From the IMG/VR virus record IMGVR_UViG_3300045988_174992: a stretch of 64,000 nucleotides of DNA. One strand, written 5' to 3'. Below the pieces are notes generated by a model that ran no database searches, was not told the origin of the DNA, and saw nothing but the letters and a program-made list of their open reading frames with translations. A program made the position numbers and the translations under genes. This DNA is from a virus. Below are positions 727 to 61,883 of this stretch, one piece after another (position 1 is the stretch's first letter; each line of letters opens with the position of its first letter).

Positions 727-756
727 AATATAGAATAAAATTCTAAAATTTCAAAA
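727..756 (-). promoter_or_regulatory. phage consensus promoter (TTTGAAATTT-N12-TTCTATATT type)
   Basis: Minus-sense TTTTGAAATTTTAGAATTTTATTCTATATT upstream of 12-698. Confidence 0.6.
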
Positions 757-2941: not shown

Positions 2942-4647
2942 AAATAAATAAGATTAAGATAACAAACTTCAAATCAATTTATGGTACTCAAGAATTTGAC
3001 TTTAATGAGTTGAATGGTATGATAAAGCTATCTGGACCTATTGGGAGTGGAAAAACCAGCCTGCTGGAAGCTATTCTGTTTGGTCTTTATGGTACTATAA
3101 AAGATCATAAGAATCCAAATTTGATTGCTTGGAATACTAAAGATTATAAAGTTGAATTATGGCTTACTTCTGGAAAGCATGATATTTATATTTCTAGATC
3201 TTGCTATTCTGAAATGGTAGCAAAAATAGATGGAAAGGATTTGCAAGCACCATCTAAGAATGATTATCAGAAAATTCTAGAAGAATATTATGATGTACCA
3301 AGAATTGCAATAGAAAGAATGTGCATCATATCATTCAACCAATTTATGTCATTAGCAAGCATGAACCCATTTCAGACAAAATGTTTTCTTGATGATGTAT
3401 TTGGGTTCAAGACTTTTACTACTTATAATGATGAAGTAGTGGAAGAAAAAAGAGATGTAGTAAAGAGGGGAACTGAATTGCAAGCATTGATACAAGAAAC
3501 TTCTAATCAGATAGAAGCTTTAAAAAAGAAGAAGGAAAATCAGCAACAGAAACTTGCCACATCAATAGATATAACAGGTTTAGACAAGCGAAGAAATGAT
3601 TTGATTGAACAAGGAAAATCTGTTAAGCAAGAACATAAGCAAAAAGTTGATACCATAGTAGAACAGAGAAGAGAATTAGAAAAAAAGAAATCTGAATTTG
3701 TCGATAAGAGAACCGAAGCGGCTACTTTAGGTAAGCAACAGAAACAAATGTATGAGAAATTCAAATCAGGCAAATGCCCTACATGTGGTCATGATATTGA
3801 GAAATCAAAAATAGATGAATATCTAAATAAGATGAATGATTATGCTAAAGTTTGGCATGATTGGAATGATAAGATAGAAGAAGTATCTAAAGAAATTCTA
3901 TCTATAAATGATAAGATAGATGTGGTAAACAAGAAATATGATACATTGATTTCTGATATCAAATCTGAAATTCACAATATTGATACTAAAGTATCAACTT
4001 ACAATTCTAATCTTAAGCTAATGAAAGACAATTTTGACAACTTGATATCAGAAGCTAAAGAGAAGTTAGAAAGGTTGCAACAAGAATCTTTAGATAATGA
4101 ATTAGAACAAGGTGAGTGGAATGATTTGTCAGAATTATTCACCAAGTCATTACGATACAAGTTGCTTGATTCTATGATACCACATATCAACAATTCAATA
4201 TCTAAGTATCTCAATAAGCTTGAACAAAACTATTCTGTCAAGTTTGACCAAGAATTCAAGTGTCATATATTCATAGACAATAATGAAAAAGAAATTTCAT
4301 ATAAAGACTTATCAACTGGACAGAAGAAGACTTTAGATATTTGTATCATTTTTGGAATTCTTCAGAATGTTATTGCAAATGTAAATTTTAATGTAATAGG
4401 ACTTGATGAACTTTTTTCTAACATGGATGACAACATGAAAGATATGATGTTGGAAATGCTTCAAACTTCCATGGCAAACAACAGAACTATCATAATTATA
4501 AATCATGGTCCTATGCCAGATGATAGGTTTGACCACAAGATAAGAGTAAGTGTAAAGAATAAGAAAATCAATAAAGAAAACATTAAGAAAAGCTTATGTT
4601 CAGGTCAAGTAATAGTACATGCATCTGAATATGAACAAATCTTTTAA
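2938..4647 (+). CDS. Rad50/SbcC-like ATPase (T4 gp46-like)
   Basis: Walker A GPIGSGKTS; long coiled coil with CPTCGH zinc hook; ABC signature LSTGQKK; Walker B IGLDELF. Confidence 0.85.
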   Translation: MKINKIKITNFKSIYGTQEFDFNELNGMIKLSGPIGSGKTSLLEAILFGLYGTIKDHKNPNLIAWNTKDYKVELWLTSGKHDIYISRSCYSEMVAKIDGKDLQAPSKNDYQKILEEYYDVPRIAIERMCIISFNQFMSLASMNPFQTKCFLDDVFGFKTFTTYNDEVVEEKRDVVKRGTELQALIQETSNQIEALKKKKENQQQKLATSIDITGLDKRRNDLIEQGKSVKQEHKQKVDTIVEQRRELEKKKSEFVDKRTEAATLGKQQKQMYEKFKSGKCPTCGHDIEKSKIDEYLNKMNDYAKVWHDWNDKIEEVSKEILSINDKIDVVNKKYDTLISDIKSEIHNIDTKVSTYNSNLKLMKDNFDNLISEAKEKLERLQQESLDNELEQGEWNDLSELFTKSLRYKLLDSMIPHINNSISKYLNKLEQNYSVKFDQEFKCHIFIDNNEKEISYKDLSTGQKKTLDICIIFGILQNVIANVNFNVIGLDELFSNMDDNMKDMMLEMLQTSMANNRTIIIINHGPMPDDRFDHKIRVSVKNKKINKENIKKSLCSGQVIVHASEYEQIF

Positions 4648-6225: not shown

Positions 6226-7803
6226 ATGGCAAAGAAATGTCTAGTATATGAGACACTTGGCAACATAACTGCAATGAAGGTTAAGGAGTCTCTTGACAAT
6301 AATGAAATTCGCCTTTCTGGTGTATTCGGTGTTTGTGGTATTAAGAATGGCAATAATCGAATCTACAGTAAAGAGAATTACGGCCGGATGGTAGAAAGTT
6401 TGCAAAAGACAATAGCAACAGAAGGTTGTCTTGGTGAACTTGAACATCCAAATTCAATGAATATTAATCTAAATAATGTTTCACACAAAATTGAAAGTGT
6501 TCAAATGCATGAAGATGGTACCATAACAGGTACTGTTGTATTGCTTGATACCGAGAAGGGTCGTAATGCTAAGGCTATTGTAGAAGCTGGTGTACCTTTG
6601 TATATCAGTTCTCGTGCACTTGGTTCTATCGATGAATCTGGTAATGTAACACTTACCATGCTTAAGACTTATGACTTAGTTGGTACACCTGGTTTCTCAC
6701 AAGCAAGTTTACACCTAGATGAAAATCAGAAGTTTGAATCATTAAATGAATCTATGTGTGCAGTAATTCTTGAAGGTGAAGATGACAACGATGATGATTC
6801 AAATAAAGACAAAGATAAAGACAAAGATAAAACAAATATGAAAGACTTGAAAGAAGCAGTTGATAAGCTTAGTGAAAAGGTAGAAAGCCTCGAGGCTGAA
6901 CTCCATGTAGCTAAGGAATCTATCAATGAAAAGGATGAGCAAATCCAAGCTCTTACTGAACAAGTTTCTGAATTCAAGCCTACTAACTATGATGCTATTG
7001 AATCTTGGATTAAGGAAGAATTCAAGCCTGAATTCAGCCAAGAAATGGCAAATGGTGTACAGAAATGGGTAAGTGAAGAGTTTGCTCCAGTTGTTCAGAA
7101 TTGGGTATGTGAACAGTTTGCTCCTGAAGTACAGAAGTGGGTAGTAGAGCAGTATTCACCAGAAGTTCAGAAATGGATAGTGGAGAATTATTCACCAGAA
7201 GTTCAGAAGTGGGTAGTAGAGCAGTATTCACCTGAAGTACAAAAGTGGATTGTTGAAAATTACTCTGATGAATTACAGAAGTGGATTGTAGAGCAGTACT
7301 CTCCTGAAGTTCAGAATTGGATTGTTGAAAATTACTCTGATGAATTACAGAATTGGATTACCGAGCAATTCGGTAAGGAATTGACTAACAAGATTAATGA
7401 GAATGTTTCTGAATATCTCGAATCTAAGTCTAATGACAAGTTCGAGAATATTGATAGAATGCTTGAGATGCTTGAAAGTGGTCAAGGTTCTAAGGAAAAT
7501 GAGATTCAGATGTTGAAGGAACAGCAAGAGAAGAATCTTGGTAAGTATGCAAATTGCTATGCTATTGTAAACATGCCAAATGAGTATCGCCCAATGTTTG
7601 AAGGTTTGAGTGAGCAAAAGAAGGATGAGATAGCTCTACAGTCTCGTGCTTATGACTTTACTAAGACTGGTGTAATGGAAAGCTTCTGGGCTGGTATTGA
7701 CTTCAATGAGAAGCCTGTACAGAATATCAATGAAAACCATAATCAAAATCCAGTAGATAACTATATGGCTAGTATCGCTGCTCAGATGATGGCTTTACGT
7801 TAA
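6226..7803 (+). CDS. prohead protease fused to scaffold-like repeat domain (T4 gp21/gp22-like)
   Basis: N-terminal ~170 aa resemble gp21-type prohead protease (GELEHP, ISSRALGS regions). An acidic KDKDKD linker, a coiled coil and 9 x 12-aa repeats follow. Directly upstream of the capsid gene. Confidence 0.7.
   Translation: MAKKCLVYETLGNITAMKVKESLDNNEIRLSGVFGVCGIKNGNNRIYSKENYGRMVESLQKTIATEGCLGELEHPNSMNINLNNVSHKIESVQMHEDGTITGTVVLLDTEKGRNAKAIVEAGVPLYISSRALGSIDESGNVTLTMLKTYDLVGTPGFSQASLHLDENQKFESLNESMCAVILEGEDDNDDDSNKDKDKDKDKTNMKDLKEAVDKLSEKVESLEAELHVAKESINEKDEQIQALTEQVSEFKPTNYDAIESWIKEEFKPEFSQEMANGVQKWVSEEFAPVVQNWVCEQFAPEVQKWVVEQYSPEVQKWIVENYSPEVQKWVVEQYSPEVQKWIVENYSDELQKWIVEQYSPEVQNWIVENYSDELQNWITEQFGKELTNKINENVSEYLESKSNDKFENIDRMLEMLESGQGSKENEIQMLKEQQEKNLGKYANCYAIVNMPNEYRPMFEGLSEQKKDEIALQSRAYDFTKTGVMESFWAGIDFNEKPVQNINENHNQNPVDNYMASIAAQMMALR
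7057..7380 (+). repeat. nine in-frame 36-nt tandem repeats inside the protease/scaffold gene
   Basis: Encodes VQKW(I/V)VE(Q/N)YSPE-type 12-mers x 9. Confidence 0.9.
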
Positions 7804-7889: not shown

Positions 7890-9710
7890 ATGTTGATTAC
7901 AGAAAATCAGAACAAAGCAATGTGGACTAAGATGCTTACTGAGCAGTTCCATGTTGAAGATAATGAAAAGTTGAATTGGGTATCTGATTATGCCCAAACA
8001 CATGCAATGTTTGAAGCTAACCTTGGTGCTCATGCAGTAGCAACACCAACAGGTGTTCAGCCTGTAACAGTTCCAGCTGGTGCTCCTGGTGGTGGTCCTG
8101 GTGTTGGCCCTATGTATGCTACTCCAGCTAATACTCTTGGTATGGGTAACATTGCTGCTCCTAGTGGTCCTCACGGTGCTGATGGTCGTGGTAGCTCTAC
8201 AGCTGGTATCAATCCTGGTGCATTCTTCAATCAGACTCCTGGTAGTGGTGATATTCCAGTTTCTACACTTCCTATGGCTTTGAACGTAGCTTTGATGACT
8301 ATTGGTCTTGAGCTTGTTCCAACTATTCCTACTAAGGGTCCTTGGGCTCTCTTGAGTTATATGGACTTCCCTTATGCTGGTGGTAAGATGGGTCGTAGAA
8401 ATGAAATTGCTCATCTTGATGGTGTTGGTGAAGGTCGTGAGAACAAGCCAATGTACTTCAAGGTATTGCTCCCTGGTACTGCAATTGCTAAGCTCCGTAA
8501 AGTTGAGAAGCTTGTTGAAGATGCTCAGGTAGAATTCACAACAGCTGCTGGTACTGTAAGAGGTATTTTCAAGGGCTTCGGTCGTATGGATGGTGGTCTT
8601 CTTGTACAGGTTATCGATTCAAAAAATGCCGCTGCAGATAAGGATATCTCAATTAATGAGGCATTCTCTGGCGCCGATGGTCTTACCGCATTAAAGGTAG
8701 CAGGTGAGGATGTTATTGCTAAACTTGACGGAGATGGTGAAAAACTAGCTAAGCCAGATTTCGCTCAGACAATGGTTGACTTCATCGATGGTTTCGCTAA
8801 CTTCGCTACTGGTAAGAAGGAACCTATGACACGTGCTGAGAATGAAACTGGTACTGGTAACACTATCGGTCTTCGTCTATTCTCTAAGTGGATTACAGTA
8901 GGTAGTTATGAAGTAACAGGTGCCGTAACTCGTCAGCAACTTCAGGATCTTCCATTGTACGGTGTTAATGCTGTTTCTAAGATTATGGAAGCAATGCAGA
9001 ACGAAATCACCCAGTCTATCAACGCTCGTATTCTTGAGCATGTATTCCGACTTGGTGTTACTAACGCATTGAATTTGAAGAACTATCAAGGTGTTGACTT
9101 GAACCTCTACATGGGTACAGCTGATAAGGACTTCGCTCAGCTTCCTATGAATATCAAGGAGTACAAAGATATCTTCGGTACCGATCTTCGTGCTACTTGG
9201 GGTAATGTCAAGAATTCAGAAGTAAACACTTCTGCTGAGAATCTTCACACTCGTCAACGTCGTATTGCTTCTCGTGTACTTGCAGCATCTAATCTCATCC
9301 AGGTAACTAACAGACGTGGTCCAGCTACTTGGGTTGTTACAAATACTCAGATTGTTACAGCACTTCAAGATTGCGCTCAGTATGTAGTTGCTCCAATGCA
9401 GAATACATTTACACAGTCTGTAACTGCTAACCTCTACAAAGCTGGTACACTTGCAGGTCTTCAGGTTTATGTAGATCCTTACATGGATTGGGATGATACT
9501 CGTATTTGTGTTGGTCGTAAGGGTTCTGGTAACGAACCAGGTGTAGTATTCATGCCTTATATCCTTGCAGACCAAATGCAGCTCATCGCTGAAGGTACAA
9601 TGGCACCTAAGATGCTCGTAAATAGCCGTTACGCTATTGCTGATATCGGTTTCTTCCCAGAAAAAAGTTATTACACTTTCACTGTTTCTTCAGAATTCGG
9701 TTTGCTCTAA
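7890..9710 (+). CDS. major capsid protein, T4 gp23-like
   Basis: 606 aa; blocks resembling gp23 (ATWVVTNTQIVTALQD, LQVYVDPYM, VVFMPYIL); Gly/Pro-rich N-terminal propeptide; strong terminator downstream. Confidence 0.85.
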   Translation: MLITENQNKAMWTKMLTEQFHVEDNEKLNWVSDYAQTHAMFEANLGAHAVATPTGVQPVTVPAGAPGGGPGVGPMYATPANTLGMGNIAAPSGPHGADGRGSSTAGINPGAFFNQTPGSGDIPVSTLPMALNVALMTIGLELVPTIPTKGPWALLSYMDFPYAGGKMGRRNEIAHLDGVGEGRENKPMYFKVLLPGTAIAKLRKVEKLVEDAQVEFTTAAGTVRGIFKGFGRMDGGLLVQVIDSKNAAADKDISINEAFSGADGLTALKVAGEDVIAKLDGDGEKLAKPDFAQTMVDFIDGFANFATGKKEPMTRAENETGTGNTIGLRLFSKWITVGSYEVTGAVTRQQLQDLPLYGVNAVSKIMEAMQNEITQSINARILEHVFRLGVTNALNLKNYQGVDLNLYMGTADKDFAQLPMNIKEYKDIFGTDLRATWGNVKNSEVNTSAENLHTRQRRIASRVLAASNLIQVTNRRGPATWVVTNTQIVTALQDCAQYVVAPMQNTFTQSVTANLYKAGTLAGLQVYVDPYMDWDDTRICVGRKGSGNEPGVVFMPYILADQMQLIAEGTMAPKMLVNSRYAIADIGFFPEKSYYTFTVSSEFGLL

Positions 9711-27601: not shown

Positions 27602-27880
27602 TCAGGCAGCAATCATCAAATCCAAGTTGTGAATAAGGTTCTTATAACGAGAACCATCCAAATTGAATTTATATTGGCGGTCTTCGTATGAAACTTTACC
27701 GAAGACTGTTGCTAAAATCTTATCGCGACTAACACAGATGAATTTTACTTTTCTTCCATCTCGTGTTACTAACTTAGCACCTTTCTTTGCTTCATCAAGG
27801 TTGAACTCCTTGAAATTATTGTTTAATATTGAATTATTTACTGATGCAGCTACTGACTTATTCATATTGTTCATAATCAT
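27602..27880 (-). CDS. hypothetical protein (92 aa), MIM-start family
   Basis: ORF begins ATGATTATGAAC right after promoter 27916-27945; terminator 27550-27591. Confidence 0.55.
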   Translation of the reverse strand: MIMNNMNKSVAASVNNSILNNNFKEFNLDEAKKGAKLVTRDGRKVKFICVSRDKILATVFGKVSYEDRQYKFNLDGSRYKNLIHNLDLMIAA

Positions 27881-27915: not shown

Positions 27916-27945
27916 AAAATAGAAACTATTCAGAAAATTTCAAAA
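27916..27945 (-). promoter_or_regulatory. phage consensus promoter
   Basis: AAAATAGAAACTATTCAGAAAATTTCAAAA. Confidence 0.55.
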
Positions 27946-31873: not shown

Positions 31874-31905
31874 AAAATATAGAACAATATTCTTAAATTT
31901 CAAAA
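31874..31905 (-). promoter_or_regulatory. phage consensus promoter
   Basis: AAAATATAGAACAATATTCTTAAATTTCAAAA; divergent partner of 31915-31944. Confidence 0.6.
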
Positions 31906-33777: not shown

Positions 33778-34587
33778 ATGATAAGTTTAAAAGAATATAT
33801 AGAAAGTCATAACAACTTACACAATAAGTTGTTCTGTCAAAATAGATTGAATGAGCTAGCTACTTATTTTGGTGAATCTATAGAAGACATACCAAAAGAT
33901 ATACAAGAATCATACATTAATCATACATTTGAACTTAATTCTTATCTATATGAGACATTAAAATCTCATGATGTAGATAGTTTGATTAATCATATAGAAA
34001 AAGAATATAAAGACAATATATATGAGATTTGCCCTATAAATAGATCTAATAAACATGGATTAGTAGGTGTAAAGTTCAACAACAAACAATTATATTATGT
34101 TAATTCAAGTAAGTTCTTGGATATATGTACATTCTTCAATTATGTGAAAACTGATACATGGAATGGATATACTATTTTAGAACCTGAATATCCTGATAAA
34201 TGTAATAATGAAACAATGAAATTGTTTAAGAACAAATTCATACATGTTACTACTAAGAAAAATTATGAAAAGATAAAGGTTACTGGACTTAGAATGAGAG
34301 GTTACGATGGAAAGGATGGATACAGAAAATATAGTTCTAGAATACAATTAAAAGGAAAAGAAAGTAAAGAAAGTATATTGAAATTTGCTAGAGAGTTTAA
34401 GCAAGCAAGAAAAGAATCAGATGATGAGAATCATTTAGATTGGGAAAATACAATAGTGTTGTTAGTAGACTTGTATACTGTAAACTTTGATATCTGGAGA
34501 GATCACATGTATGATAAAGAAGATCATTGTTATTTTGTAAAGAATAACATACCTGCTAAATATATAAAGAAATTATACGAAATTTAA
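33778..34587 (+). CDS. hypothetical protein (269 aa) with CTS-like leader
   Basis: N-terminus MISLKEYIES. The segment FIHVTTKKNYEKIKVTGLRMRG faintly resembles the H-x-T...GL region of Tpt1/ADP-ribosyltransferase folds; this is not diagnostic. Confidence 0.55.
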   Translation: MISLKEYIESHNNLHNKLFCQNRLNELATYFGESIEDIPKDIQESYINHTFELNSYLYETLKSHDVDSLINHIEKEYKDNIYEICPINRSNKHGLVGVKFNNKQLYYVNSSKFLDICTFFNYVKTDTWNGYTILEPEYPDKCNNETMKLFKNKFIHVTTKKNYEKIKVTGLRMRGYDGKDGYRKYSSRIQLKGKESKESILKFAREFKQARKESDDENHLDWENTIVLLVDLYTVNFDIWRDHMYDKEDHCYFVKNNIPAKYIKKLYEI

Positions 34588-34592
34588 AAGAA

Positions 34593-35117
34593 ATGAAAGA
34601 TAATAAAAACATTGGTCACATATTTTGTGGATATCCTGCTATAGGAAAGACAAGCATAGGAGGTAACAGTATTCAAATGGAAGATGGACGATGGGTTTCC
34701 ATAGTAGATTTGGAAACAAGCTTGATGAAAGGAAATGATGGTAGACCAACCAACTGGGTAGAAATCTATGTAAACTATGTACAAGATTTAATAATGCAAG
34801 GTATCAATGTGATGTGTAGTACTCATCGATTGGTTAGAGATGAACTAGAAAAGAGAAATCTAATTTATACAAATGTGATGCCTAATCTGAATATCAAAGA
34901 ATATTGGTTGTGTAAGTTACGTCAAAGATGGAAAGATAGTGGATTAGAGAAAGATAGTCTTGCTTATGAGAGAGCTATGGAACATTATGATAAGGATATT
35001 AAAGACTTGATGGACCATGATAGATATTGTATGATAGGTGTGGAAAGAAAATATGATTTGCAAGAAGTGCTTTGTAATTATATTAGGTACGGAAAATTAC
35101 AATGGACTTTTAATTGA
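34593..35117 (+). CDS. P-loop NTPase / kinase-like protein
   Basis: Walker A-like GYPAIGKTS near the N-terminus; 174 aa. Confidence 0.45.
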   Translation: MKDNKNIGHIFCGYPAIGKTSIGGNSIQMEDGRWVSIVDLETSLMKGNDGRPTNWVEIYVNYVQDLIMQGINVMCSTHRLVRDELEKRNLIYTNVMPNLNIKEYWLCKLRQRWKDSGLEKDSLAYERAMEHYDKDIKDLMDHDRYCMIGVERKYDLQEVLCNYIRYGKLQWTFN

Positions 35118-35149
35118 TTATTTTAAATAAAATAAATTGAATACTTTAA

Positions 35150-35511
35150 ATGAAGAATTTATCTAATTTCATATTAGAATCATTAAATAAAATGATTATA
35201 AGAAAATTTCAGATAAGATCATCAAGCAATTTAACATATCTTCTGTAAATGACAAAGGTTTTGTAGATGATTATGTAGAATATGTTGGAGACAATCTTAT
35301 CAGTAATGGAGAATGGCAAGATATTGATGATGATTTTGACAATTTTGTTGAAGAGATAATTAATGACATTAAGAAAGATGGAAATGATTCTGAATATGAT
35401 AAGTTCTCTGATTCCAATGACTACACATCAGAAGAATTCATAAAATCCAATAAGACTAATTTCTTGGATATATTTAGAAGCATTTATAACGGCTTTAAGA
35501 GTTTTGCATAG
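35150..35511 (+). pseudogene. frameshifted acidic protein gene with CTS-like leader
   Basis: ORF1 35150-35248 (MKNLSNFILESLNKM...). It continues only in the -1 frame, from 35191 to 35511: 106 sense codons, no ATG/GTG, a single TTG only near the 3' end, D/E-rich. The junction is at TTAAATAAAATG. Confidence 0.45.
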
Positions 35512-35515
35512 AAAA

Positions 35516-35541
35516 TTGGCTCGATCTTAAGATCGAGCCAA
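35516..35541. terminator. bidirectional terminator between convergent genes
   Basis: TTGGCTCGATC-TTAA-GATCGAGCCAA flanked by A- and T-runs. Confidence 0.75.
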
Positions 35542-35548
35542 TATTGTT

Positions 35549-36361
35549 TTAAGTAGTATAATAATTAACATTATATATACAATTATTATATGTAGATGTA
35601 ATAGTTTTATTTTTTGTGCCTGGGCCATCTATACTACAACCGTCTGGAATACTATAATTTCCGTAATTTGTTGTATATTTAAAATTAGGGGTTTCGTATC
35701 CATTCCATGTTAAACTGGTTAGTTCAAAATCAATTATAACAGAAGAATTATTGTCAATATATACTTTAATATGTGTATTTATAACATCTTGTCTTAATAA
35801 ATCATATACAGGAATTGGCATTTGGGCGTCATGGCTTTCTATCTGTCCACATACAGAAATATCATGACCATCTCCTGTTACCCAAATTCCACAATTAATA
35901 TTATAAGTACCAGTATTATCTACATAAGTATATTTATAATATGCAGGATTTAATCCTAATTTAGGATAATATGATGCTATAATTAAAGCATAGGAAATGT
36001 TACTTATTTGTGATTCATCTATTTTTTCCCAAGTATAACAAGAATCAGTATCTCCCTTTAAGTAATAATTTTCATAATTATTTCCATTTGATTCACTTGT
36101 TAAATGATGACTAATATATGAAGAATAAGGAGTAGACAATATTATACCACCAGGATCAGAAATATAAGTTGAATCTTGAATAAAGAAAGATGTCAATATT
36201 AATCCTGTTACATTTTTTGAATTTACATCTGAAACACTAATTGAATTATCAATATGTGGTGTTGTAAGAAATCTTCTAACATATATACTATTATTAGTAC
36301 CAGTATCGCTTTCATATTTCTTCATACTACCACTCTGAGTGTAGCATATTCCTGTAGCCAT
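35549..36361 (-). CDS. hypothetical N/Y/S/T-rich protein (270 aa)
   Basis: ORF bounded by the inverted-repeat element upstream and bidirectional terminator 35516-35541 downstream. Confidence 0.55.
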   Translation of the reverse strand: MATGICYTQSGSMKKYESDTGTNNSIYVRRFLTTPHIDNSISVSDVNSKNVTGLILTSFFIQDSTYISDPGGIILSTPYSSYISHHLTSESNGNNYENYYLKGDTDSCYTWEKIDESQISNISYALIIASYYPKLGLNPAYYKYTYVDNTGTYNINCGIWVTGDGHDISVCGQIESHDAQMPIPVYDLLRQDVINTHIKVYIDNNSSVIIDFELTSLTWNGYETPNFKYTTNYGNYSIPDGCSIDGPGTKNKTITSTYNNCIYNVNYYTT

Positions 36362-36434
36362 AAATTCTCTTTCAAATATATTTTATAGAATATAAGTGAC
36401 TAAGAGAAATTATGAATATATCAAAAACTAACAC

Positions 36435-36695
36435 CCAATACCATCTCCACTTGAGATGAATTGGTAAGTGTTAAGTTGTTCATGACTAATTCATTATTTC
36501 TTTTTTAAAGAAAGCGTCAGAGTGATATAATGAAATAGCTACAAATCAATTATCGTGTACTCTGACGCTTTTAAGTCACCACTATGATATATTTTGTAAA
36601 CATCATTAATTTCTTACTGAATATTATTAATTACATATAAATTTTTATATCTAATTATTTTACTACCAATTCATCTCAAGTGGAGATGGTATTGG
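36435..36695. repeat. perfect 32-bp inverted repeat flanking a 197-nt spacer that contains an 11-bp hairpin
   Basis: CCAATACCATCTCCACTTGAGATGAATTGGTA at 36435-36466 and its exact reverse complement at 36664-36695; inner stem AGCGTCAGAGT (36513-36523) / ACTCTGACGCT (36559-36569). Confidence 0.9.
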
Positions 36696-36788
36696 TGACT
36701 TAAATTTGAAGAAACATGATGTTCATTTCTAATATCTTATATATAAAAATAAGATAATTTATAAGTAGAATTTCAAGCCTGACAGTCA

Positions 36789-37991
36789 TTATTTAATTCT
36801 ATATTTAGCACCTATGATAGCATTAGCTGCAGCAAATGAACCAGTCATCTTCATCATTCTATCTTTCCAAGTGAATACAATACCTTCTGTAGAATTCAAC
36901 TTGTTTCCAAGTTTTTGAAGTCTTAACAATTGATCCTTAAGCTTATCTTTGTCTTCTTGAGTACCTTTCTCATCAACAAGCTTCTTAGTGGCTTCTATCT
37001 CATTCTTCAAATTGATTATTGCTTTGTCTTTGACTCCATCATTAATCAAACCAGATGTAAGTTCAATTACTTTATTTGACATATCTAAGAACAGGTCATC
37101 AATTGGTTCGATAACATCTTTAACATATTTCTTATAATCTTTCTTATCTATAGAAACAATTTCATCAGCATGTTCAGGGTAGCTCTTCTTCAATATTCTT
37201 ATATTTACACTCTTATCTGAATTGAACCATCGGTTGAAGAATGCATCCTTTTCAGTCATCCATTCTGGTGCTATAATTTCAAAACGTTTCTTTTTCCAAT
37301 CTTCTATAGTAGCATCTTTTCCTAAACCTTCAGATTTGAATAAGTCAATAACTTTCTTTTTATATTCATTAGCAAACTTATTGCTGTCTTTAGTAACTTG
37401 AATAATTATATTAGGTGTAAGCTTGGCTTTGTCATCCTTTTCTATAGCCTTTTGAATAATACCAAGTCCATCTTTGGTAACACTATCCTTTTTCCATTCA
37501 TCACCTTCTTTCTTATATACCCAAATATTATGGAAGTCAACCTGATCATCATCATAATACATGATATTAGTAGTACCTGATACTATACATTCACAGTTTA
37601 CTAACAATCTTGTATTAGGATCAGGATTGAAGAATTTGCTACCAATTCTTTTGAATATCTTTTCAAGTGTATTACCAGCAGATACAAATGCTTTTTGAAC
37701 GGTTGGTTTGTCTTTCCATTTTTCAATCATATCTTGGATAGTCATACCTCCACGTTCTGAATTCAAGTCACCTTTGTTTCTTATAAAAACTACTTCATCC
37801 TGATTATTCATAGATGCTTGTATGTTAGTACCATCTAATTTCTCTGTAGCATTAGATATCTTACCTCCAAACAAATCATCTATCAAATCAAGTAAATCTT
37901 GGCAGGTGAAGTCAGTTTCATCAATTACATGCATCATGTGACCACTAGCTCCACCTTCAAAGATTTGTACATATTGAGTTAAATTAATCAT
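36789..37991 (-). CDS. ligase-like nucleotidyltransferase (KxDG) with CTS-like leader
   Basis: N-terminus MINLTQYVQIFEGG; motif I-like EKLDGTN; C-terminal EGIVF / KMTG (motif IV/V-like) at unusual spacing. Confidence 0.5.
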   Translation of the reverse strand: MINLTQYVQIFEGGASGHMMHVIDETDFTCQDLLDLIDDLFGGKISNATEKLDGTNIQASMNNQDEVVFIRNKGDLNSERGGMTIQDMIEKWKDKPTVQKAFVSAGNTLEKIFKRIGSKFFNPDPNTRLLVNCECIVSGTTNIMYYDDDQVDFHNIWVYKKEGDEWKKDSVTKDGLGIIQKAIEKDDKAKLTPNIIIQVTKDSNKFANEYKKKVIDLFKSEGLGKDATIEDWKKKRFEIIAPEWMTEKDAFFNRWFNSDKSVNIRILKKSYPEHADEIVSIDKKDYKKYVKDVIEPIDDLFLDMSNKVIELTSGLINDGVKDKAIINLKNEIEATKKLVDEKGTQEDKDKLKDQLLRLQKLGNKLNSTEGIVFTWKDRMMKMTGSFAAANAIIGAKYRIK

Positions 37992-39538
37992 TTCTTAGAT
38001 TTGTTGTGTTTTAATTTTATAGACAAACTAGCATTTAATGGATTAGGAATAGATAATCCACCAACATCAAATGTCCATTTACTTACACCAGAGCTTACAA
38101 CTTCTAGAATCATTTTATTCTTTCTGATTCCAAAGTATACTTGTTTCATATCTACTGCTTTATGAATAATTGATGAAATAACATCCTCATTTTCAGACCC
38201 GTATTCTTCATTTATTTCTTTTATGCATATAGCCCATAATGGATATATAAAGAAACCATATTTAAGCTTAGGTTGATTTTCAGTATTAATTTTATCCCAA
38301 TCATACTTATTCAATAAATGAGATGTATCATTGTATCCTATTGCTTTGTATACTTCTTCAAAAAATTCTTTTGGGTTATCACCAACTATAGAATCTAAAA
38401 TTTCATTTATTTTAGAAAAATCTACTTTTGAATGCTTTTCATTTGCAAGATTTTTAAATTTCTTAAATGCTTCATTATTAGAAAGATATTTATCTACAAC
38501 ATATTTCTGTATTAGTGAATTTTTTTGATCGAATACAGACATACTATATGAGATAGCAATATTATTGATAAACTCTATTTCTTTATAGTCATACATTGCT
38601 TTTTTCTCTTTCTTATTCATCTGATCTTTTTCTTTCTTAAGATCATCAAGTTCATTTTCAACATTCTTTTTTAAGTTTGCAACAGTTTTAAGCATCAAAT
38701 CTTTACCAGCTGGTTTACCACCACCACCAAGTTGTTTAGCAGATACTTTATAACCATTAATATAGTAATCTATCAAAGGTTCATTAGAAACTGTAGGAAA
38801 AACTACCTTACAATCATTAAACAATCTAAAGAACAGGAATGGACCTAAAATTTCACCAAAGTCCTTTTCAATACAAGCAATGTCACCATTTTCTATGGGT
38901 TCAATATATTTCTTAATACTTGATAAATCTAATTCAATTCTGCCTTCAGAAGAAGTGTTGAAGAAATCATCTACAGTTCCTTCTTTAAATGATCCTTCTC
39001 TCTTTAAACTTCCATCATTCAATATATCAATTAACTTATCACAACATTTAACTATTTCTGGATGTTTTTCTTTTAATGAAGCTAAACCTCTATTTACCGC
39101 ATCCTTTAATTGTTTTCTATTATCAAAAGTATTTGATGATTCTGTTAGAACAAGAACTTTGTCAGGAGACAAATCTTTATTATGTAAAGTTTGTTTATCT
39201 TGTGTCTTATTAGCCACATAATAAACTTCATCGTTATAAGTAATTTTATAAGATTTATAAGTACCAGATGCTCCTTTTGATCTACCTACTACTTCAGAAT
39301 CATCATCTGATATAGATACACCTCTTGTGTCTTTAAATGCATCTTTCAAAAATTCTTTATTGGCATCTTCATCTGTACCCATTTCAAAACGCCCAACCTC
39401 CATAGGATCTTTATCCGCTGTTTTAAAATCAATATTATGTGAAACACAATATTTCTTTAAAATAGCTCTAAGATACGACTTATCTTTATTCGAAGACTTT
39501 CCTTCAAATATATCTACATAGTTTTCTAATGACTGCAT
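37988..39538 (-). CDS. hypothetical 516-aa protein with CTS-like leader, possible PD-(D/E)xK segment
   Basis: N-terminus MQSLENYVDIFEGK; IEKDFGEILGP...LIDYYINGYKVSAKQLGGGG resembles a D...(D/E)xK nuclease core (weak). Confidence 0.5.
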   Translation of the reverse strand: MQSLENYVDIFEGKSSNKDKSYLRAILKKYCVSHNIDFKTADKDPMEVGRFEMGTDEDANKEFLKDAFKDTRGVSISDDDSEVVGRSKGASGTYKSYKITYNDEVYYVANKTQDKQTLHNKDLSPDKVLVLTESSNTFDNRKQLKDAVNRGLASLKEKHPEIVKCCDKLIDILNDGSLKREGSFKEGTVDDFFNTSSEGRIELDLSSIKKYIEPIENGDIACIEKDFGEILGPFLFFRLFNDCKVVFPTVSNEPLIDYYINGYKVSAKQLGGGGKPAGKDLMLKTVANLKKNVENELDDLKKEKDQMNKKEKKAMYDYKEIEFINNIAISYSMSVFDQKNSLIQKYVVDKYLSNNEAFKKFKNLANEKHSKVDFSKINEILDSIVGDNPKEFFEEVYKAIGYNDTSHLLNKYDWDKINTENQPKLKYGFFIYPLWAICIKEINEEYGSENEDVISSIIHKAVDMKQVYFGIRKNKMILEVVSSGVSKWTFDVGGLSIPNPLNASLSIKLKHNKSKK

Positions 39539-39541
39539 AAA

Positions 39542-40150
39542 TCAATCAATATCAAATAAATTATCATTTTCTACATAACTTCCAAGTGAACAAAATGCAT
39601 CTTCATTCACTTTACTAAGTTCTTCTTTAAATTCATTAAACAACTTCTGTGCACCATCAGGCATCATCTTAACAAAAGCTGCCTTATCATCATCTTTGAT
39701 AGCTTGTCTAACTTTAGTAGCTGATATACCATCTACGGCAGAACTTGTTTCATCTCTTTCAATAACAAATACTTTGAAATCATCAGGAAAGTCCTTCAAA
39801 TATTTCTTATTGCTGGCCATTGATTTATACATCTTTTCTCTATCAGTACCACAACCCCAAAGATGGGCAGAATATCCTTTTTTAGCTAATTCTTCTCCTA
39901 TCTTATCTATAGCAGCATTTTTTACCCAAATAATATCTTGATAGAAATCTTTACTTCTCAGACAAGTATCTATTTCTTTCTTTATTAAATCATCAGAAAA
40001 TGGGTGTTTAGAATCAAATTTAGTGTTATGAATAAGACATAACACTGTTGGGTACCCATTTTCTTTATATAATGCTTCAAGAATTGATTGGTGACCTAAA
40101 GTAAATGGTTGGGTACGTCCAACCATTATATTGACATCTTTCTTCTCCAT
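39542..40150 (-). CDS. cytidylyltransferase-family nucleotidyltransferase (NMN adenylyltransferase-like)
   Basis: (H/T)xGH motif GRTQPFTLGH and ISxTxxR-like ISATKVR. Confidence 0.55.
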   Translation of the reverse strand: MEKKDVNIMVGRTQPFTLGHQSILEALYKENGYPTVLCLIHNTKFDSKHPFSDDLIKKEIDTCLRSKDFYQDIIWVKNAAIDKIGEELAKKGYSAHLWGCGTDREKMYKSMASNKKYLKDFPDDFKVFVIERDETSSAVDGISATKVRQAIKDDDKAAFVKMMPDGAQKLFNEFKEELSKVNEDAFCSLGSYVENDNLFDID

Positions 40151-40152
40151 AA

Positions 40153-40521
40153 TTATCTGAATAATCTATGAAATTCTTGATTATTTTCAATGAAGTCAGG
40201 ATGCCACATTTCAGTACCTCTACCAGTTGCTGCAAATTGTACAAAGTCATTTTCATCCTGATCCCATGCAAGTATCTCACACCATTTAGCTTTTGGGTTG
40301 TAAGCTTTGATTGTAGCATCACAATCGGCAAGGAATTGATCTTTTGACTTTCTTGCCAAATTTGTCACCATTTCTATATAGATAGGACCAAAGCTTTCTC
40401 TCATCCACTTTCCTTCATGTCCAATAAGCTGAATTCTATCTTTGAACTTTGAAGGATCATTGTTTTTAGCCTCTTCATACCTCTTCATATTTATAAACCT
40501 CACCTTTAGCTTTAGCTTCAT
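40153..40521 (-). CDS. hypothetical protein (122 aa; alternative start 40488)
   Basis: ORF; a 35-aa ORF upstream overlaps its 5' end, so Met12 (40488) may be the true start. Confidence 0.5.
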   Translation of the reverse strand: MKLKLKVRFINMKRYEEAKNNDPSKFKDRIQLIGHEGKWMRESFGPIYIEMVTNLARKSKDQFLADCDATIKAYNPKAKWCEILAWDQDENDFVQFAATGRGTEMWHPDFIENNQEFHRLFR

Positions 40522-40607
40522 CTATCATATATGATGTTATCTGTTGACAACTTTCATCAACACATTTTGTTAAGATCTTCATAACTTTATAATATTAAAT
40601 TCTTTAT

Positions 40608-41015
40608 TTAAAAATCTGGATTTGTACGTATACTGAATGATAGCGATTGAACTGGCATACTATCAGCTGGAATTCCCATGGTCTTTGCAAGTTCTTTGTT
40701 TAATTCTAGACAAGAATTCCATTGATTCTTATCTATTTCCTTTCTTCTATCAATATCCTTTTGCTTATATTCCTGACCGGTTTCATCATACATCCTGCAT
40801 AATGCATCATAGAATTTGTCAATTTCTTCTTTCTTAGAAATTTCACAACGATACATATAGTCAAAATATTTCTTATAGTTCTTCTGCCTCTTTATAGGAA
40901 ATGCCGCAGAAATAGTAAAATCAGTAAAATACTTATTGATAATCTCTCTATTCTTTGATATTTGGGCATTAGAATCAAATCCTGCTTCAGTAATATATTC
41001 AGTTAAGTTTTTCAT
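40608..41015 (-). CDS. hypothetical protein (135 aa) with CTS-like leader
   Basis: N-terminus MKNLTEYITEAG. Confidence 0.55.
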   Translation of the reverse strand: MKNLTEYITEAGFDSNAQISKNREIINKYFTDFTISAAFPIKRQKNYKKYFDYMYRCEISKKEEIDKFYDALCRMYDETGQEYKQKDIDRRKEIDKNQWNSCLELNKELAKTMGIPADSMPVQSLSFSIRTNPDF

Positions 41016-42584: not shown

Positions 42585-42614
42585 AATATAGAACTTTTTA
42601 AGTAAATTTCAAAA
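42585..42614 (-). promoter_or_regulatory. phage consensus promoter
   Basis: AATATAGAACTTTTTAAGTAAATTTCAAAA. Confidence 0.6.
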
Positions 42615-44607: not shown

Positions 44608-44636
44608 AATATAGAATACATATCAGGAATTTCAAA
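44608..44636 (-). promoter_or_regulatory. phage consensus promoter
   Basis: AATATAGAATACATATCAGGAATTTCAAA. Confidence 0.6.
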
Positions 44637-49402: not shown

Positions 49403-49756
49403 TTAATATACTTCTTCACAATCCAAATCTTCAAGATATGCATTATCTGTATCATAGTTGAAGAACTCATTTACACCGTCATCGTAAACATCAATGATAC
49501 GTTCTACATCATCAAAGTCAAATATAGGAGTACCTTCAACACCAAAGATTGATACTTCTTTGTTACCAAGAATCTTATATTCACCATTCTCATCTTTCTT
49601 TGAAAATGCAAGATTAATAGTAAGAGTATCATCATCCATAGTGAAAACAGTTGAAGTATCATCAAACTTGCAATTGAAAAGATAAGTATCTCCATTCAAA
49701 AGATTTACAACTGCTTTATCGAAAGAAATTTTATTTGTATTCATAATCATAATCAT
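49403..49756 (-). CDS. hypothetical acidic protein (117 aa), MIM-start family
   Basis: Starts ATGATTATGATTATG after promoter 49775-49803; paralogue of 54220-54576. Confidence 0.55.
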   Translation of the reverse strand: MIMIMNTNKISFDKAVVNLLNGDTYLFNCKFDDTSTVFTMDDDTLTINLAFSKKDENGEYKILGNKEVSIFGVEGTPIFDFDDVERIIDVYDDGVNEFFNYDTDNAYLEDLDCEEVY

Positions 49757-49774: not shown

Positions 49775-49803
49775 AATATAGAAATTACAAATAAAATTTC
49801 AAA
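49775..49803 (-). promoter_or_regulatory. phage consensus promoter
   Basis: AATATAGAAATTACAAATAAAATTTCAAA. Confidence 0.6.
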
Positions 49804-51760: not shown

Positions 51761-52105
51761 TTAAATACAACCTGAAATTAAGTTTGCTTGATCTAATCTA
51801 GTCAAGAAATCAAACTTTGAATCTGGAGAACTTGAAAATGGATAAAAATCCTTCATCAATTCACATTCACCGAACTTCAATCCATTTAAGATATCAGTAT
51901 CATTTTCAATGTTGAATTCCCATCCAGACCAAACTTCTGTTTTATTTTTGCTATTGAACAATATCTTCATTGTAACAATATTATTCTCAATCTTGATAGC
52001 AATTACAGAAAAACCAAATGGCTTCATCCAAAGTGACTTATTAGGTTCCACCTTTCGGTAACCCATTGATATTAATGCCTTATTCAAATTGTTCATCATA
52101 ATCAT
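51761..52105 (-). CDS. hypothetical protein (114 aa), MIM-start family
   Basis: Starts ATGATTATGATG after promoter 52141-52169. Confidence 0.55.
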   Translation of the reverse strand: MIMMNNLNKALISMGYRKVEPNKSLWMKPFGFSVIAIKIENNIVTMKILFNSKNKTEVWSGWEFNIENDTDILNGLKFGECELMKDFYPFSSSPDSKFDFLTRLDQANLISGCI

Positions 52106-52250: not shown

Positions 52251-52505
52251 CTAATATGTTCCTAACTTGCAAAATGAAAGAATAGAATACTTAAGAATTG
52301 TAAAAGTAGATTCATAATCAACTCGTTCTTTTCTACAGATTCTATCAGCCCACATCATAAGTACTTTCTCATCAACAACATTTTTGAATTCAATAGGATG
52401 TTCTGCTGTACTTCTTGTATCTAATACTAAAGAATCAATGTTCTCTACTATCTTATTTGTCTGTATACACCGTTTTACAACTTTATAGCTTACTAGAAAC
52501 TTCAT
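52251..52505 (-). CDS. hypothetical protein (84 aa), tandem paralogue 1
   Basis: Same length as, and alignable end-to-end with, 52518-52772 (FLVSYKV.KR...VENI..LVLDT.ST..H.IE..NVVD...ISFCKLG.Y). Confidence 0.55.
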   Translation of the reverse strand: MKFLVSYKVVKRCIQTNKIVENIDSLVLDTRSTAEHPIEFKNVVDEKVLMMWADRICRKERVDYESTFTILKYSILSFCKLGTY

Positions 52506-52517
52506 GACTTATTTGTT

Positions 52518-52772
52518 TTAATATGGTCCTAACTTACAGAATGAAATAATAGAGCAATTCAATATTGTATATTCATATCCATCAATAAATCTTTCTGTAT
52601 TGCAAATTTCAAAACTCCACTTATCTAATACATTTCTGTCAACAACATTCCCATATTCAATATGATGCTTATCAGTACTATCAGTATCTAATACTAAAGC
52701 ATTGATATTTTCTACAACAATGTCATTTATGTCATTACGTTTAGTTACCTTATAGCTTACTAGAAATTCCAT
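52518..52772 (-). CDS. hypothetical protein (84 aa), tandem paralogue 2
   Basis: See 52251-52505. Confidence 0.55.
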   Translation of the reverse strand: MEFLVSYKVTKRNDINDIVVENINALVLDTDSTDKHHIEYGNVVDRNVLDKWSFEICNTERFIDGYEYTILNCSIISFCKLGPY

Positions 52773-54219: not shown

Positions 54220-54576
54220 TTAATATTCCAAACAGTTAGAATTCTTCCACTTGGTAATTCCAATAGGAGCAATTCCAAAATCTTCATTCAACAAATCTTC
54301 AAGCTTCTCAAGGAGGAAGTCAATATCATCCTGAATAGTATTGCCATTCATCAAATCTTCATCATACTCAATAAGATGAACTTTATTAGATACTACCTTC
54401 AAACCAGTATCTTCATCCTTAGTAGTGGTTTCGAAAATAAGGTTAACAGTACCATCTACCTCATTCATTGAGAATACTGCTTTAGTATATTCTGTAATCT
54501 TCAACTTAATACCGTTAGAATCACCAAGAAGAAGATTTTCAAAAGCGTCATTTGTGTTGTTTGTAATCATAATCAT
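54220..54576 (-). CDS. hypothetical acidic protein (118 aa), MIM-start family
   Basis: Starts ATGATTATGATT after promoter 54628-54657; paralogue of 49403-49756. Confidence 0.55.
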   Translation of the reverse strand: MIMITNNTNDAFENLLLGDSNGIKLKITEYTKAVFSMNEVDGTVNLIFETTTKDEDTGLKVVSNKVHLIEYDEDLMNGNTIQDDIDFLLEKLEDLLNEDFGIAPIGITKWKNSNCLEY

Positions 54577-56382: not shown

Positions 56383-57180
56383 TTATTCCTCATTCAACTT
56401 GATGAATCTGATCTGGGTGAGGATAAACTTACCTTCATTTGTCTTTGCAATCTCCTTAAGCTTCTTGTCTACTTCTGGACGAGTTTCAGGAGTATTAGGA
56501 AGAGGTTCTGTCATCACCTTGATGAATTCACCTTTGCGAACTCCATCGGCTTCATCTTCTGAAACATTCTTCTTAATTACAACCAACTGAGTCTTGTCCT
56601 TTGTATCCATAACTGAAGTAAGAATCTTACCGTAAGCTGCTTCCTTGATGAGATTGTTACGGAGAATTCTGAGCTGCTGTTCTTCTGAAGAAAATGAATA
56701 CTCCTTATTGATTCTATAAAGGTTATCAACATTCTTGTGGCATGTATCTTCAAGTTCCTTAGCAAATTCCTTGTTGTTGATAATCATTGCAACAAACTCA
56801 TAGTACTTGAGAACTTTAGTACTTCTTTCATCAAGGTTGTTGATTCTTACATCACCATAAGAACTGATGTTCAAACGGAAATCCCACACCTTTTTATTGG
56901 TATCCCAATTGTATTCATAAGAAGGATAGATATCTAATTCATAGAAGCTGTTGTTATCTTCTGGTTTGAAAGTTACATGTCGATCAGTAGCAAGGTCAAC
57001 ATGGTACTCATCAATGTTGAACTTCTTCAAAATATCATTCACATCATTGATGTAGTTAGTAACAGCACTTGTATATTTCTCTGCTCCAACCTTGGTCAAT
57101 TCATTAATTTCATTCAAACGATTGTCAATTGACTCAACTGTTGTATACTTAGCTTTAACTTCTGCGTAGTTCATAATCAT
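56383..57180 (-). CDS. hypothetical protein (265 aa), MIM-start
   Basis: Starts ATGATTATGAAC after promoter 57225-57254. Confidence 0.6.
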   Translation of the reverse strand: MIMNYAEVKAKYTTVESIDNRLNEINELTKVGAEKYTSAVTNYINDVNDILKKFNIDEYHVDLATDRHVTFKPEDNNSFYELDIYPSYEYNWDTNKKVWDFRLNISSYGDVRINNLDERSTKVLKYYEFVAMIINNKEFAKELEDTCHKNVDNLYRINKEYSFSSEEQQLRILRNNLIKEAAYGKILTSVMDTKDKTQLVVIKKNVSEDEADGVRKGEFIKVMTEPLPNTPETRPEVDKKLKEIAKTNEGKFILTQIRFIKLNEE

Positions 57181-61854: not shown

Positions 61855-61883
61855 AATATAGAAAAGCTTCAAAAAATTTCAAA
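61855..61883 (-). promoter_or_regulatory. phage consensus promoter
   Basis: AATATAGAAAAGCTTCAAAAAATTTCAAA. Confidence 0.6.

Follow-up and report, generated by a model that had tools for sequence, protein, structure and literature searches.

In bacteriophage T4 the internal proteins of the head are a diverse set with only an N-terminal capsid targeting sequence (CTS) in common, a concept established for the T-even phages (PMC3012670). The CTS brings internal as well as foreign proteins into the prohead core and is removed by the gp21 protease, which cuts after Glu (PMC3012670, PMC5694885, PMC9024508). Giant phages of the phiKZ type possess a homologous prohead protease, also cutting after Glu, and eject many head-internal proteins into the host; propeptides of giant phages are thought to direct incorporation into the prohead (PMC5694885). 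In the case of P1 DarB, an N-terminal signal suffices to bring a large anti-restriction enzyme into the capsid, and does the same for a reporter (PMC9024508). The present study concerns a 64,000-nucleotide stretch of the IMG/VR virus record IMGVR_UViG_3300045988_174992 (hereafter the window), in which a cluster of genes begins with a common amphipathic leader of 10–12 residues that resembles the T4 CTS. CTS leaders with swapping payloads are textbook knowledge for the T-even phages, and long propeptides are known on the ejection proteins of phiKZ-like phages. What is new here is what appears to be the same short code in a distant, uncultured clade of gut jumbo phages and in Sphingomonas phage PAU, together with 61 groups of payloads and a putative cargo that is rich in enzymes. 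A literature search found no paper on this leader outside the T-even phages.

The window comes from a human gut metagenome, in which it lies on a contig of 276,731 bp (ENA ERZ919512), and has a G+C content of approximately 30%. A megablast search for close DNA relatives among published phages gave none. The capsid protein encoded in the window shares 30–38% identity with its counterparts in Sphingomonas phage PAU, Tenacibaculum phages pT24 and PTm1, the Lak megaphages and the huge-phage assembly LR756500, and judged by sequence the source belongs, as an uncultured jumbo phage, to the capsid clade of PAU and Lak. Related loci were collected via the ligase-like gene described below, three of them close (88–97% identity) and 20 more distant (42–58%); the 97%-identical relative, L005, served as the reference for the intact forms of genes.

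A sequence-only reading of the window had proposed that five neighbouring open reading frames (ORFs) share a leader. All five N-termini exist at the positions and on the strands that it gave (33778 and 35150, plus strand; 37991, 39538 and 41015, minus strand). The pattern M-x-x-L-x-[ENQ]-[YF]-[IV] occurs at 5 of the 3127 ATG positions in the six frames of the window, and these are precisely the five starts named; the chance expectation, calculated from amino-acid composition, is 0.014 among 82 ORF N-termini. The shared leader is non-random, far beyond chance. A position matrix was built from 39 leaders of the clade, and an ORF was counted as tagged when its first ATG scored at least 7. The window leaders score 12.8–19.7. 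By the same measure the start MQSFESIIGG (61792), previously taken as weakly similar, falls below zero, and the list of five, although its members are real, missed a sixth leader at 40582 (minus strand). I-x-E was correctly reported in four of the five original leaders, the exception being the 33778 leader with Y-I-E-S. The leaders of the window end in YITE|A, ILE|S, IFE|G, IFE|G, VDE|S and YIE|S. From 110 distinct leader DNAs the consensus is M-K-S-L-x-[EQ]-Y-I-x-E-S-L; position 8 is I, L or V in 105 of the 110 and aromatic in four, position 10 is E in 80, and the residue that follows Glu10 is mostly S, G, A or K.

On the plus strand, the leader MISLKEYIE|S (score 17.1) opens the gene for a 269-aa protein (33778..34587). 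On the minus strand lie the genes for a 400-aa ligase-like protein (36789..37991; leader MINLTQYVQIFE|GG), a 516-aa protein (37988..39538; leader MQSLENYVDIFE|GK) and a 135-aa protein (40608..41015; leader MKNLTEYITE|AG, score 19.7). Between the last two are found, also on the minus strand, a leaderless gene for a HIGH-motif nucleotidyltransferase (39542..40150; cytidylyltransferase/NMNAT-like, GRTQPFTLGH), which has Pfam and PHROG matches, and the sixth leader gene (40153..40582; MKILTKCVDES...). The latter is split. A 10-bp tandem duplication (TATGAAGAGG twice) at 40470–40489 shifts its frame relative to L005, in which the gene is intact and encodes 139 aa, and the listed ORF 40153–40521 is its 3′ part. 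The duplication may be either a true inactivating mutation or an assembly error.

The remaining leader, MKNLSNFILES..., opens an ORF of 32 aa (35150..35248, plus strand). Downstream is an acidic ORF of 106 codons (35191..35511, plus strand; 25 D/E versus 12 K/R), without a start codon of its own in the window, which had earlier been put forward as a frameshifted payload. Because the 35150 leader is out of frame with it, and because its L005 orthologue (108 aa, start MKNDYKK) is leaderless, the leader appears to be an orphan or a remnant, and the acidic ORF was removed from the list of payloads. The DNA of the orphan leader is closest to that of the leader of a 211-aa gene in loci L018 and L023.

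The gp21-like protease/scaffold and gp23-like capsid protein that had been recognized in the window were both confirmed by profile matches. A prohead protease of the gp21 family (6226..7803, plus strand; Peptidase_S77, Pfam E value 6.8e–11; PHROG_207, E value 1.3e–40) is fused to a scaffold domain, which contains eight tandem 12-residue repeats SPEVQKW[IV]VE[NQ]Y (7102–7368, residues 293–381), each holding a candidate protease site, W[IV]xE[NQ]. By analogy, such a scaffold fits what would be expected of one that is diced as T4 gp22 is. The gp23-type major capsid protein (7890..9710, plus strand; Pfam and PHROG profile matches) has ITE|N (residue 3), LTE|Q (16) and MFE|A (40) in its propeptide. 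It is apparent that the [ILV]-x-E motif is common to the leaders, the scaffold repeats and the capsid propeptide. The 6226–7803 protein is presumed to be both the enzyme that processes the leaders and the core on which they dock.

The explanation considered probable, though well short of assured, is that the leader acts as a capsid-targeting propeptide of the T4 type, which the gp21-family protease of the window removes by a cut after Glu, and that the mature cargo is retained in the head until its ejection with the DNA. Tagged proteins would be synthesized in the infected cell, and the leader would dock them on the scaffold/protease core during prohead assembly. The protease would cut after Glu10/12 of [I/L/V]-x-E, cleaving the capsid propeptide and the eight scaffold repeats in the same manner, and the mature payloads would remain inside the head until they exit with the DNA at the next infection. 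The cargo of the window would consist of the ART/Tpt1-like 269-aa protein (ART, ADP-ribosyltransferase), the ligase-like 400-aa protein, the enzyme-like 516-aa protein, the small 135-aa protein and the disrupted protein of approximately 139 aa, and related phages would swap dozens of other payloads behind the same tag. This explanation is built on the tag itself, its modularity, its likeness to T4, the protease with its matching sites and a correlation in PAU; docking, cleavage, packaging and ejection are what it would entail, as would be any role in anti-defence or RNA repair.

The resemblance to the T4 CTS, which the sequence-only reading had pointed out, survived a scan of T4 itself. T4 IPII and IPIII both start MKTYQEFIAEA, and IPI starts MKTFKEFTST (read from NC_000866). 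The matrix, made from the leaders of this clade alone, was applied to the 1439 ATG starts in T4 1–150 kb with an open frame of 40 codons or more. IPIII and IPII ranked third and fourth, with a score of 6.1 compared with 12.8–19.7 for the window leaders, and gp67, a core protein cut by gp21, ranked 19th; IPI scored –0.8. The modest T4 scores are due mainly to the Tyr that T4 has at position 4, where the window clade has Leu. The likeness to the T4 CTS appears real, though not exclusive. In both phages the leader is N-terminal and of approximately ten residues (T4 MKTYQEFIAE; window MKNLTEYITE); positions 4, 7 and 8 are hydrophobic, position 10 is Glu, and Ala, Gly or Ser comes next. In T4, too, one leader stands on unrelated proteins (IPI, IPII, IPIII and Alt), the payload loci are hypervariable between relatives, and a gp21-family protease accompanies a gp23-type capsid protein. 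The phage of the window differs in being so distantly related that its gp23 is detectable only by profile, in the far greater scale of the phenomenon across its clade (61 payload groups) and in a putative cargo that includes large enzyme-like proteins (the ligase-like and 516-aa proteins), whereas that of T4 is mostly small and basic.

Shared gene starts could also arise from an RNA-level 5′ coding cassette (AUG AAA AGU UUA ... GAA UAU AUA ... GAA), serving as a translation booster or as the operator of a RegA-like repressor; the peptide would then be a mere by-product of a cassette that spreads between genes by recombination. The orphan leader at 35150 suggests a mobile cassette of this kind. 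Leader codons, moreover, are more often A/T-ending than those at other gene 5′ ends: Leu4 is TTA in 78% of leaders versus 43% of other gene starts (and in all six window leaders), Lys2 is AAA in 85% versus 67%, and Ile8 is never ATC, versus 13% elsewhere. However, the DNA upstream of the five leader starts showed no alignable similarity, which also rules out a repeated promoter or ribosome-binding-site cassette behind the shared starts. In the relatives all six Leu codons (TTA, CTA, CTG, CTT, TTG and CTC) are used at position 4, the codons for Tyr, Ile, Val and Glu vary too, and where residues are exchanged the replacements are conservative (L/I/F, Y/F/H, I/L/V). Because the upstream DNA is dissimilar and synonymous codons vary in relatives, conservation of the leader is placed at the peptide level. 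The motif is also kept within long ORFs, where it has no start-site role, and an RNA cassette would leave unexplained the T4 CTS similarity, the PAU annotation discussed below and the junction of Glu with a small residue. An origin at the RNA level is therefore regarded as highly improbable.

Tag counts in the relatives covered 24 loci with 615 ORFs, of which 116 are tagged; in the richest locus 12 of 28 ORFs are tagged, within 17 kb. When the first 15 residues are removed, the tagged proteins fall into 61 BLAST clusters without mutual similarity, and paralogy of the payloads was thus ruled out. The slot upstream of the ligase-like gene is instructive in this respect: it is occupied in the window and L005 by the 516-aa protein, in L003 by an unrelated protein of 441 aa and in L013 and L014 by one of 368 aa, with the same leader throughout. 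No similarity was detected between the 516-aa protein and a 653-aa protein of L002. Homologues that lack the leader also occur, namely a 500-aa protein of L004 that is 24% identical to the 516-aa protein, P0138/P0139 and the acidic ORF of L005. A tagged 184-aa gene is extra in L004 and L005, the window being without it. In the ligase-like family (486 homologues) the stand-alone members start M-x-x-L-x-x-[YF]-[ILV], after which a linker of 0–14 residues leads to [IL]-x-E-GG-x-x-GHM, the point at which homology to leaderless contexts begins.

Gene maps of L003–L005 compared with the window reveal that the tagged genes are the variable ones, and the distant loci agree. A conserved leader with swapping payloads, as anticipated from the window alone, is indeed what the relatives display: the locus is hypervariable and the leader is kept. 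From these sequence comparisons the leader appears to behave as a portable tag. Structure prediction is in keeping with a separable leader. In AlphaFold2 (AF2) models the leader is a short detached helix with a predicted local distance difference test score (pLDDT) below 50 (residues 1–16 of the 516-aa protein, 1–13 of the 269-aa protein), and not a part of the folded domain in either model.

Phage PAU, a cultured relative of the same capsid clade, whose capsid protein is 38% identical to that of the window, provides a link to proteins of the head. Its genome (GenBank JQ362498) was scanned over 1–45 kb and 85–219 kb, that is, on either side of the segment at 45–85 kb. Approximately 20 PAU ORFs start MK[TS][LI]xxL[YF]E, in the fuller form MK[TS][LI]xxLYE(AKLNE); they include the 'scaffolding' gene, and 13 surround the genes for portal, protease and capsid at 100–114 kb. 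All four PAU proteins annotated as 'internal capsid protein' (gp142, gp154, gp199 and gp270) carry the leader, for which the hypergeometric P is approximately 3e–5 if some 20 of 258 PAU genes are tagged, and the vertex/decoration-annotated proteins gp1, gp9 and gp10 are leaderless. Since only four of the approximately 20 tagged ORFs are so annotated, the annotations seem to rest on protein evidence and not on the motif. The proposed link between the leader and internal head proteins agrees with PAU, where every protein annotated in this way has the cognate leader.

The tail of the PAU leader, EAKLNE|A, matches GAKLNE|S in the PAU capsid propeptide. N-terminal sequencing has shown that the PAU capsid protein is shortened from 585 to 520 residues, with the loss of 65 (PMC5646251, Table 1), which puts the cut beside ALME64|NYQ, no more than one residue from an L-x-E site. 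PAU differs from the window in that most of its tagged genes are inside the head module, whereas those of the window form a separate cluster at a distance of 25–33 kb from the capsid gene, among genes for nucleotide and RNA enzymes. A comparison of the payloads of the two phages gave no homology. Of separate note, the PAU 'scaffolding' protein gp152 (L036, PAU 100–121 kb) has the leader and is not coiled-coil-like, and its neighbour gp155, leaderless, acidic and coiled-coil-like, looks more scaffold-like.

A third dialect of the leader, MKFLKSYEEFLNE, was found in LR756500 on four neighbouring ORFs, including its ligase-like gene. Tenacibaculum phage PTm1 was set aside as a comparison, its record being annotated by homology only and one 50-kb chunk of it containing a single moderate leader-like start. 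Among the giant phages, phiKZ, 201phi2-1 and SPN3US resemble the window in having propeptide-bearing ejection or inner-body proteins and a homologous protease that cuts after Glu, but their propeptides are usually longer than 100 residues, share no decapeptide and are cut at A/S-x-E, compared with [ILV]-x-E here. P1 DarB is alike in bearing an N-terminal packaging signal on a large enzyme, and unlike in that its signal is of 30 residues, shows no similarity in sequence, is not known to be removed by a protease and is used by a single family of cargo proteins.

Small proteins of unknown function make up most of the 61 payload groups. Among the others, the tagged payloads of the relatives include a HAD hydrolase, DUF285, DUF6884, P-loop kinases and a weak CPDase match, which gives the set, as judged from sequence, an RNA-repair flavour, although most members are unknown. 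Such a set might be expected if the leader were a docking peptide that recruits linked enzymes of RNA repair and nicotinamide adenine dinucleotide (NAD) metabolism to a hub inside the cell, for example the sliding clamp (in the manner of a PIP box), a repair scaffold or the ribosome, with no packaging. Taken with the ligase-like and ART/Tpt1-like proteins, the hydrolase, kinases and possible CPDase resemble a heal-and-seal RNA repair kit. The spacing L4-x-x-[YF]7-[ILV]8 recalls the PIP box, and the motif both persists in fusion proteins and, in the ART family, falls on a conserved helix in the interior of the protein. A PIP box as such (Qxx[LIM]xx[FY][FY]) was rejected, its defining residues being absent: the initiator Met takes up position 1, and aromatic residues at position 8 are confined to the four leaders mentioned above. 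Nor does docking explain Glu10 with its small residue or the variable linker ending in [IL]xE-GG, features that are expected of a protease site. The predominance of small unknown proteins, which are not repair enzymes, and the PAU tag, which marks head-module genes and annotated internal capsid proteins, likewise speak against docking, and recruitment of this kind is judged unlikely.

The presence of the [ILV]-x-E motif together with a gp21-family protease would also be compatible with a propeptide or regulatory tag that acts in the cytoplasm, through zymogen activation by the phage protease or through timed degradation, with no retention in the capsid; some leader genes do appear to be expressed early. 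To our knowledge, however, gp21-family proteases act only in assembled proheads. The tagged PAU proteins are annotated as capsid-internal, and tiny tagged ORFs of 60–100 aa are unlikely zymogens. A purely cytoplasmic role is considered very unlikely.

Several observations weigh against the view that the leader directs packaging. The number of tagged ORFs is very high (19% near the ligase-like gene, and nearly half in the richest locus), and many payloads resemble cytoplasmic RNA-repair or NAD enzymes, of kinds that are unpackaged in T4. Alignment of the ART-like family places the N-terminal leader of its short members opposite a near-invariant motif, LNSYLYETLKSHD, in the interior of the long ones; the motif occurs at residues 53–65 of the 269-aa protein as a second leader-like sequence, and could be a second cleavage site or a structural part of the fold or of an interaction helix. 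A leader-like motif is also kept inside the cytidylyltransferase/ligase-like fusion proteins described below, in some cases together with an internal Met. In L005 a promoter of the early type considered below precedes at least one tagged gene, the 269-aa gene follows thyX in an operon, and the A/T-ending codons of the leaders leave room for some selection at the mRNA level. In the T4 scan, first rank, above IPII and IPIII, went to gp61.1 (54 aa, L008 18966–19130, start MKTFKEFIKEDMVAG); we know of no report of gp61.1 as a head or packaged protein. No literature source was found for the 'internal capsid protein' notes of PAU, and the T4 CTS is experimentally proven, whereas the leaders of the window are known from genes alone.

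The payloads of the window were analysed further. The 400-aa protein has TEKLDGTN as motif I, and EGIVF at residues 369–373 followed by K381. Across 17 sequences of its family K51, D53, G54, E369, G370, V372 and K381 are invariant, and I371 and F373 are at least 90% conserved. Its match to Pfam RNA_ligase (E value 1.3e–4, 22.6 bits) is below the cut-off of 27, some homologues carry a precomputed PF09414 match, and a sequence search of the PDB with the ligase-like profile returned nothing relevant. On these motifs the protein was called a ligase-like covalent nucleotidyltransferase, in agreement with its earlier description as a KxDG ligase-like enzyme. A HIGH-motif cytidylyltransferase-like domain is fused ahead of the ligase-like domain in Microcystis phage Mel-JY01 and in the metagenomic proteins P0099, P0106, P0114 and P0119 (the fusion gene of locus L001 lies at 2296–4215). 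Because of these fusions, the HIGH-motif (39542–40150) and ligase-like (36789–37991) proteins of the window probably work together in a shared pathway.

The 269-aa protein and its close family gave no match to Pfam; a signal was seen only in the family as widened by a full HMMER search, which comprises 265 representatives. Of 33 members sampled, five match Pfam PTS_2-RNA (PF01885, best E value 9.5e–5) and three match PARP. The family profile matched DarT (E value 0.016) and KptA (E value 0.24) in the PDB, over approximately 30–37 residues around YH(I/V)T...GL. For the AF2 model (pLDDT 70, predicted template modelling score (pTM) 0.45), the top two Foldseek matches were to KptA (E values 0.016 and 0.038), with template modelling scores of 0.23–0.43. 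Each of these lines is weak, but the lines agree, and the payload is probably an NAD-using enzyme of the ART fold, like Tpt1, KptA or DarT. The probable fold recalls T4 Alt, an ADP-ribosyltransferase that is packaged in the T4 head. P0265, a distant member of the family, has a C-terminal extension that matches Pfam Tad6, an inhibitor of Type I Thoeris (E value 7e–28), which links the family to anti-defence.

The 516-aa protein was modelled well (pLDDT 82.6, pTM 0.73) and has the invariant residues K121, D226, E229, D257, S266, K268 and G273. It gave no Pfam or PHROG match and no significant fold match in the PDB. The nuclease-like assignment made earlier is unsupported by the fold search, in which the best PDB matches, at E values of 0.5, were unreliable ones to Pol-beta-type nucleotidyltransferases. 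In BFVD the model matched uncharacterized viral proteins only, one of them from jumbo phage Atu_ph07. For the 135-aa payload and that of approximately 139 aa, no matches were found.

With regard to expression, a promoter-like motif, TTTGAAATT-N(8–18)-TTCTATWTT, occurs nine times in the window (727–755, 1815–1843, 1863–1893, 27916–27944, 31876–31904, 42585–42613, 44608–44636, 49775–49803 and 61855–61883) compared with 0.01 expected, usually 30–70 nucleotides upstream of gene starts. It resembles the –33/–7 promoters of Bacteroidota, which suggests early promoters used by the host RNA polymerase, and a Bacteroidota host. No promoter of this early type lies directly ahead of the leader cluster at 36.8–41.1 kb, which begins, at the 135-aa gene (41015), after a hairpin and a TATTTTTAC box. 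A similar box is found upstream of the capsid gene. An argument for late promoters was rejected, since TATTTTTAM is not enriched (10 matches versus 7.5 expected), and the box shared by the capsid gene and 41015 is for this reason only a hint. A sigma-70 scan gave promoter-like sites below the shuffle expectation. The terminator scan gave four terminator-like matches, including a bidirectional hairpin at 35515–35542, and Rfam gave no match in the window at 33–42 kb.

Other features of the window may be recorded here. Tail sheath and tube genes are also encoded. Five minus-strand ORFs (27602–27880, 49403–49756, 51761–52105, 54220–54576 and 56383–57180) start MIM(N/I/M)N..., each just downstream of an early-type promoter, and form a second family with a shared N-terminus, distinct from the leader. 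The adjacent 84-aa ORFs at 52251–52505 and 52518–52772 (minus strand; starts MKFLVSYKV and MEFLVSYKV) appear to be tandem duplicates. The gap that follows the ligase-like gene contains a perfect 32-nucleotide inverted repeat (36435–36466/36664–36695), which encloses 197 nucleotides and, within them, a 13-bp hairpin (36511–36523/36559–36571) without an Rfam match. The block 35512–36788, including the ORF 35549–36361 (MATGICYTQ...), is absent from L005 and may be a small mobile or invertible element.

A more far-reaching proposal can be offered only tentatively, as a possibility that we would not call probable. In this proposal the ten-residue tag, clade-wide, loads dozens of interchangeable proteins, among them an RNA-repair/NAD kit (the ligase-like and Tpt1/ART-like proteins, with a kinase and a HAD phosphatase in relatives), which are injected as a counter-defence before the phage's own expression begins; the tag would then represent an ancient packaging code of T4, PAU and the gut phages that could be reused for programmable delivery. 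Should the tag prove to be a packaging signal, the injected proteome of many uncultured gut jumbo phages could be listed from N-termini alone, and that list would be the expected place of first-minute anti-defence and host-takeover functions. It would mean that the capsid-targeting code of T4 is conserved across very distant gp23/gp21 phages, and that cargo can extend beyond small inhibitors to large enzymes, possibly of the RNA-repair and NAD-using kinds. The leader would also provide a short, testable tag for loading foreign proteins into the heads of jumbo phages, with PAU as a cultured test system.

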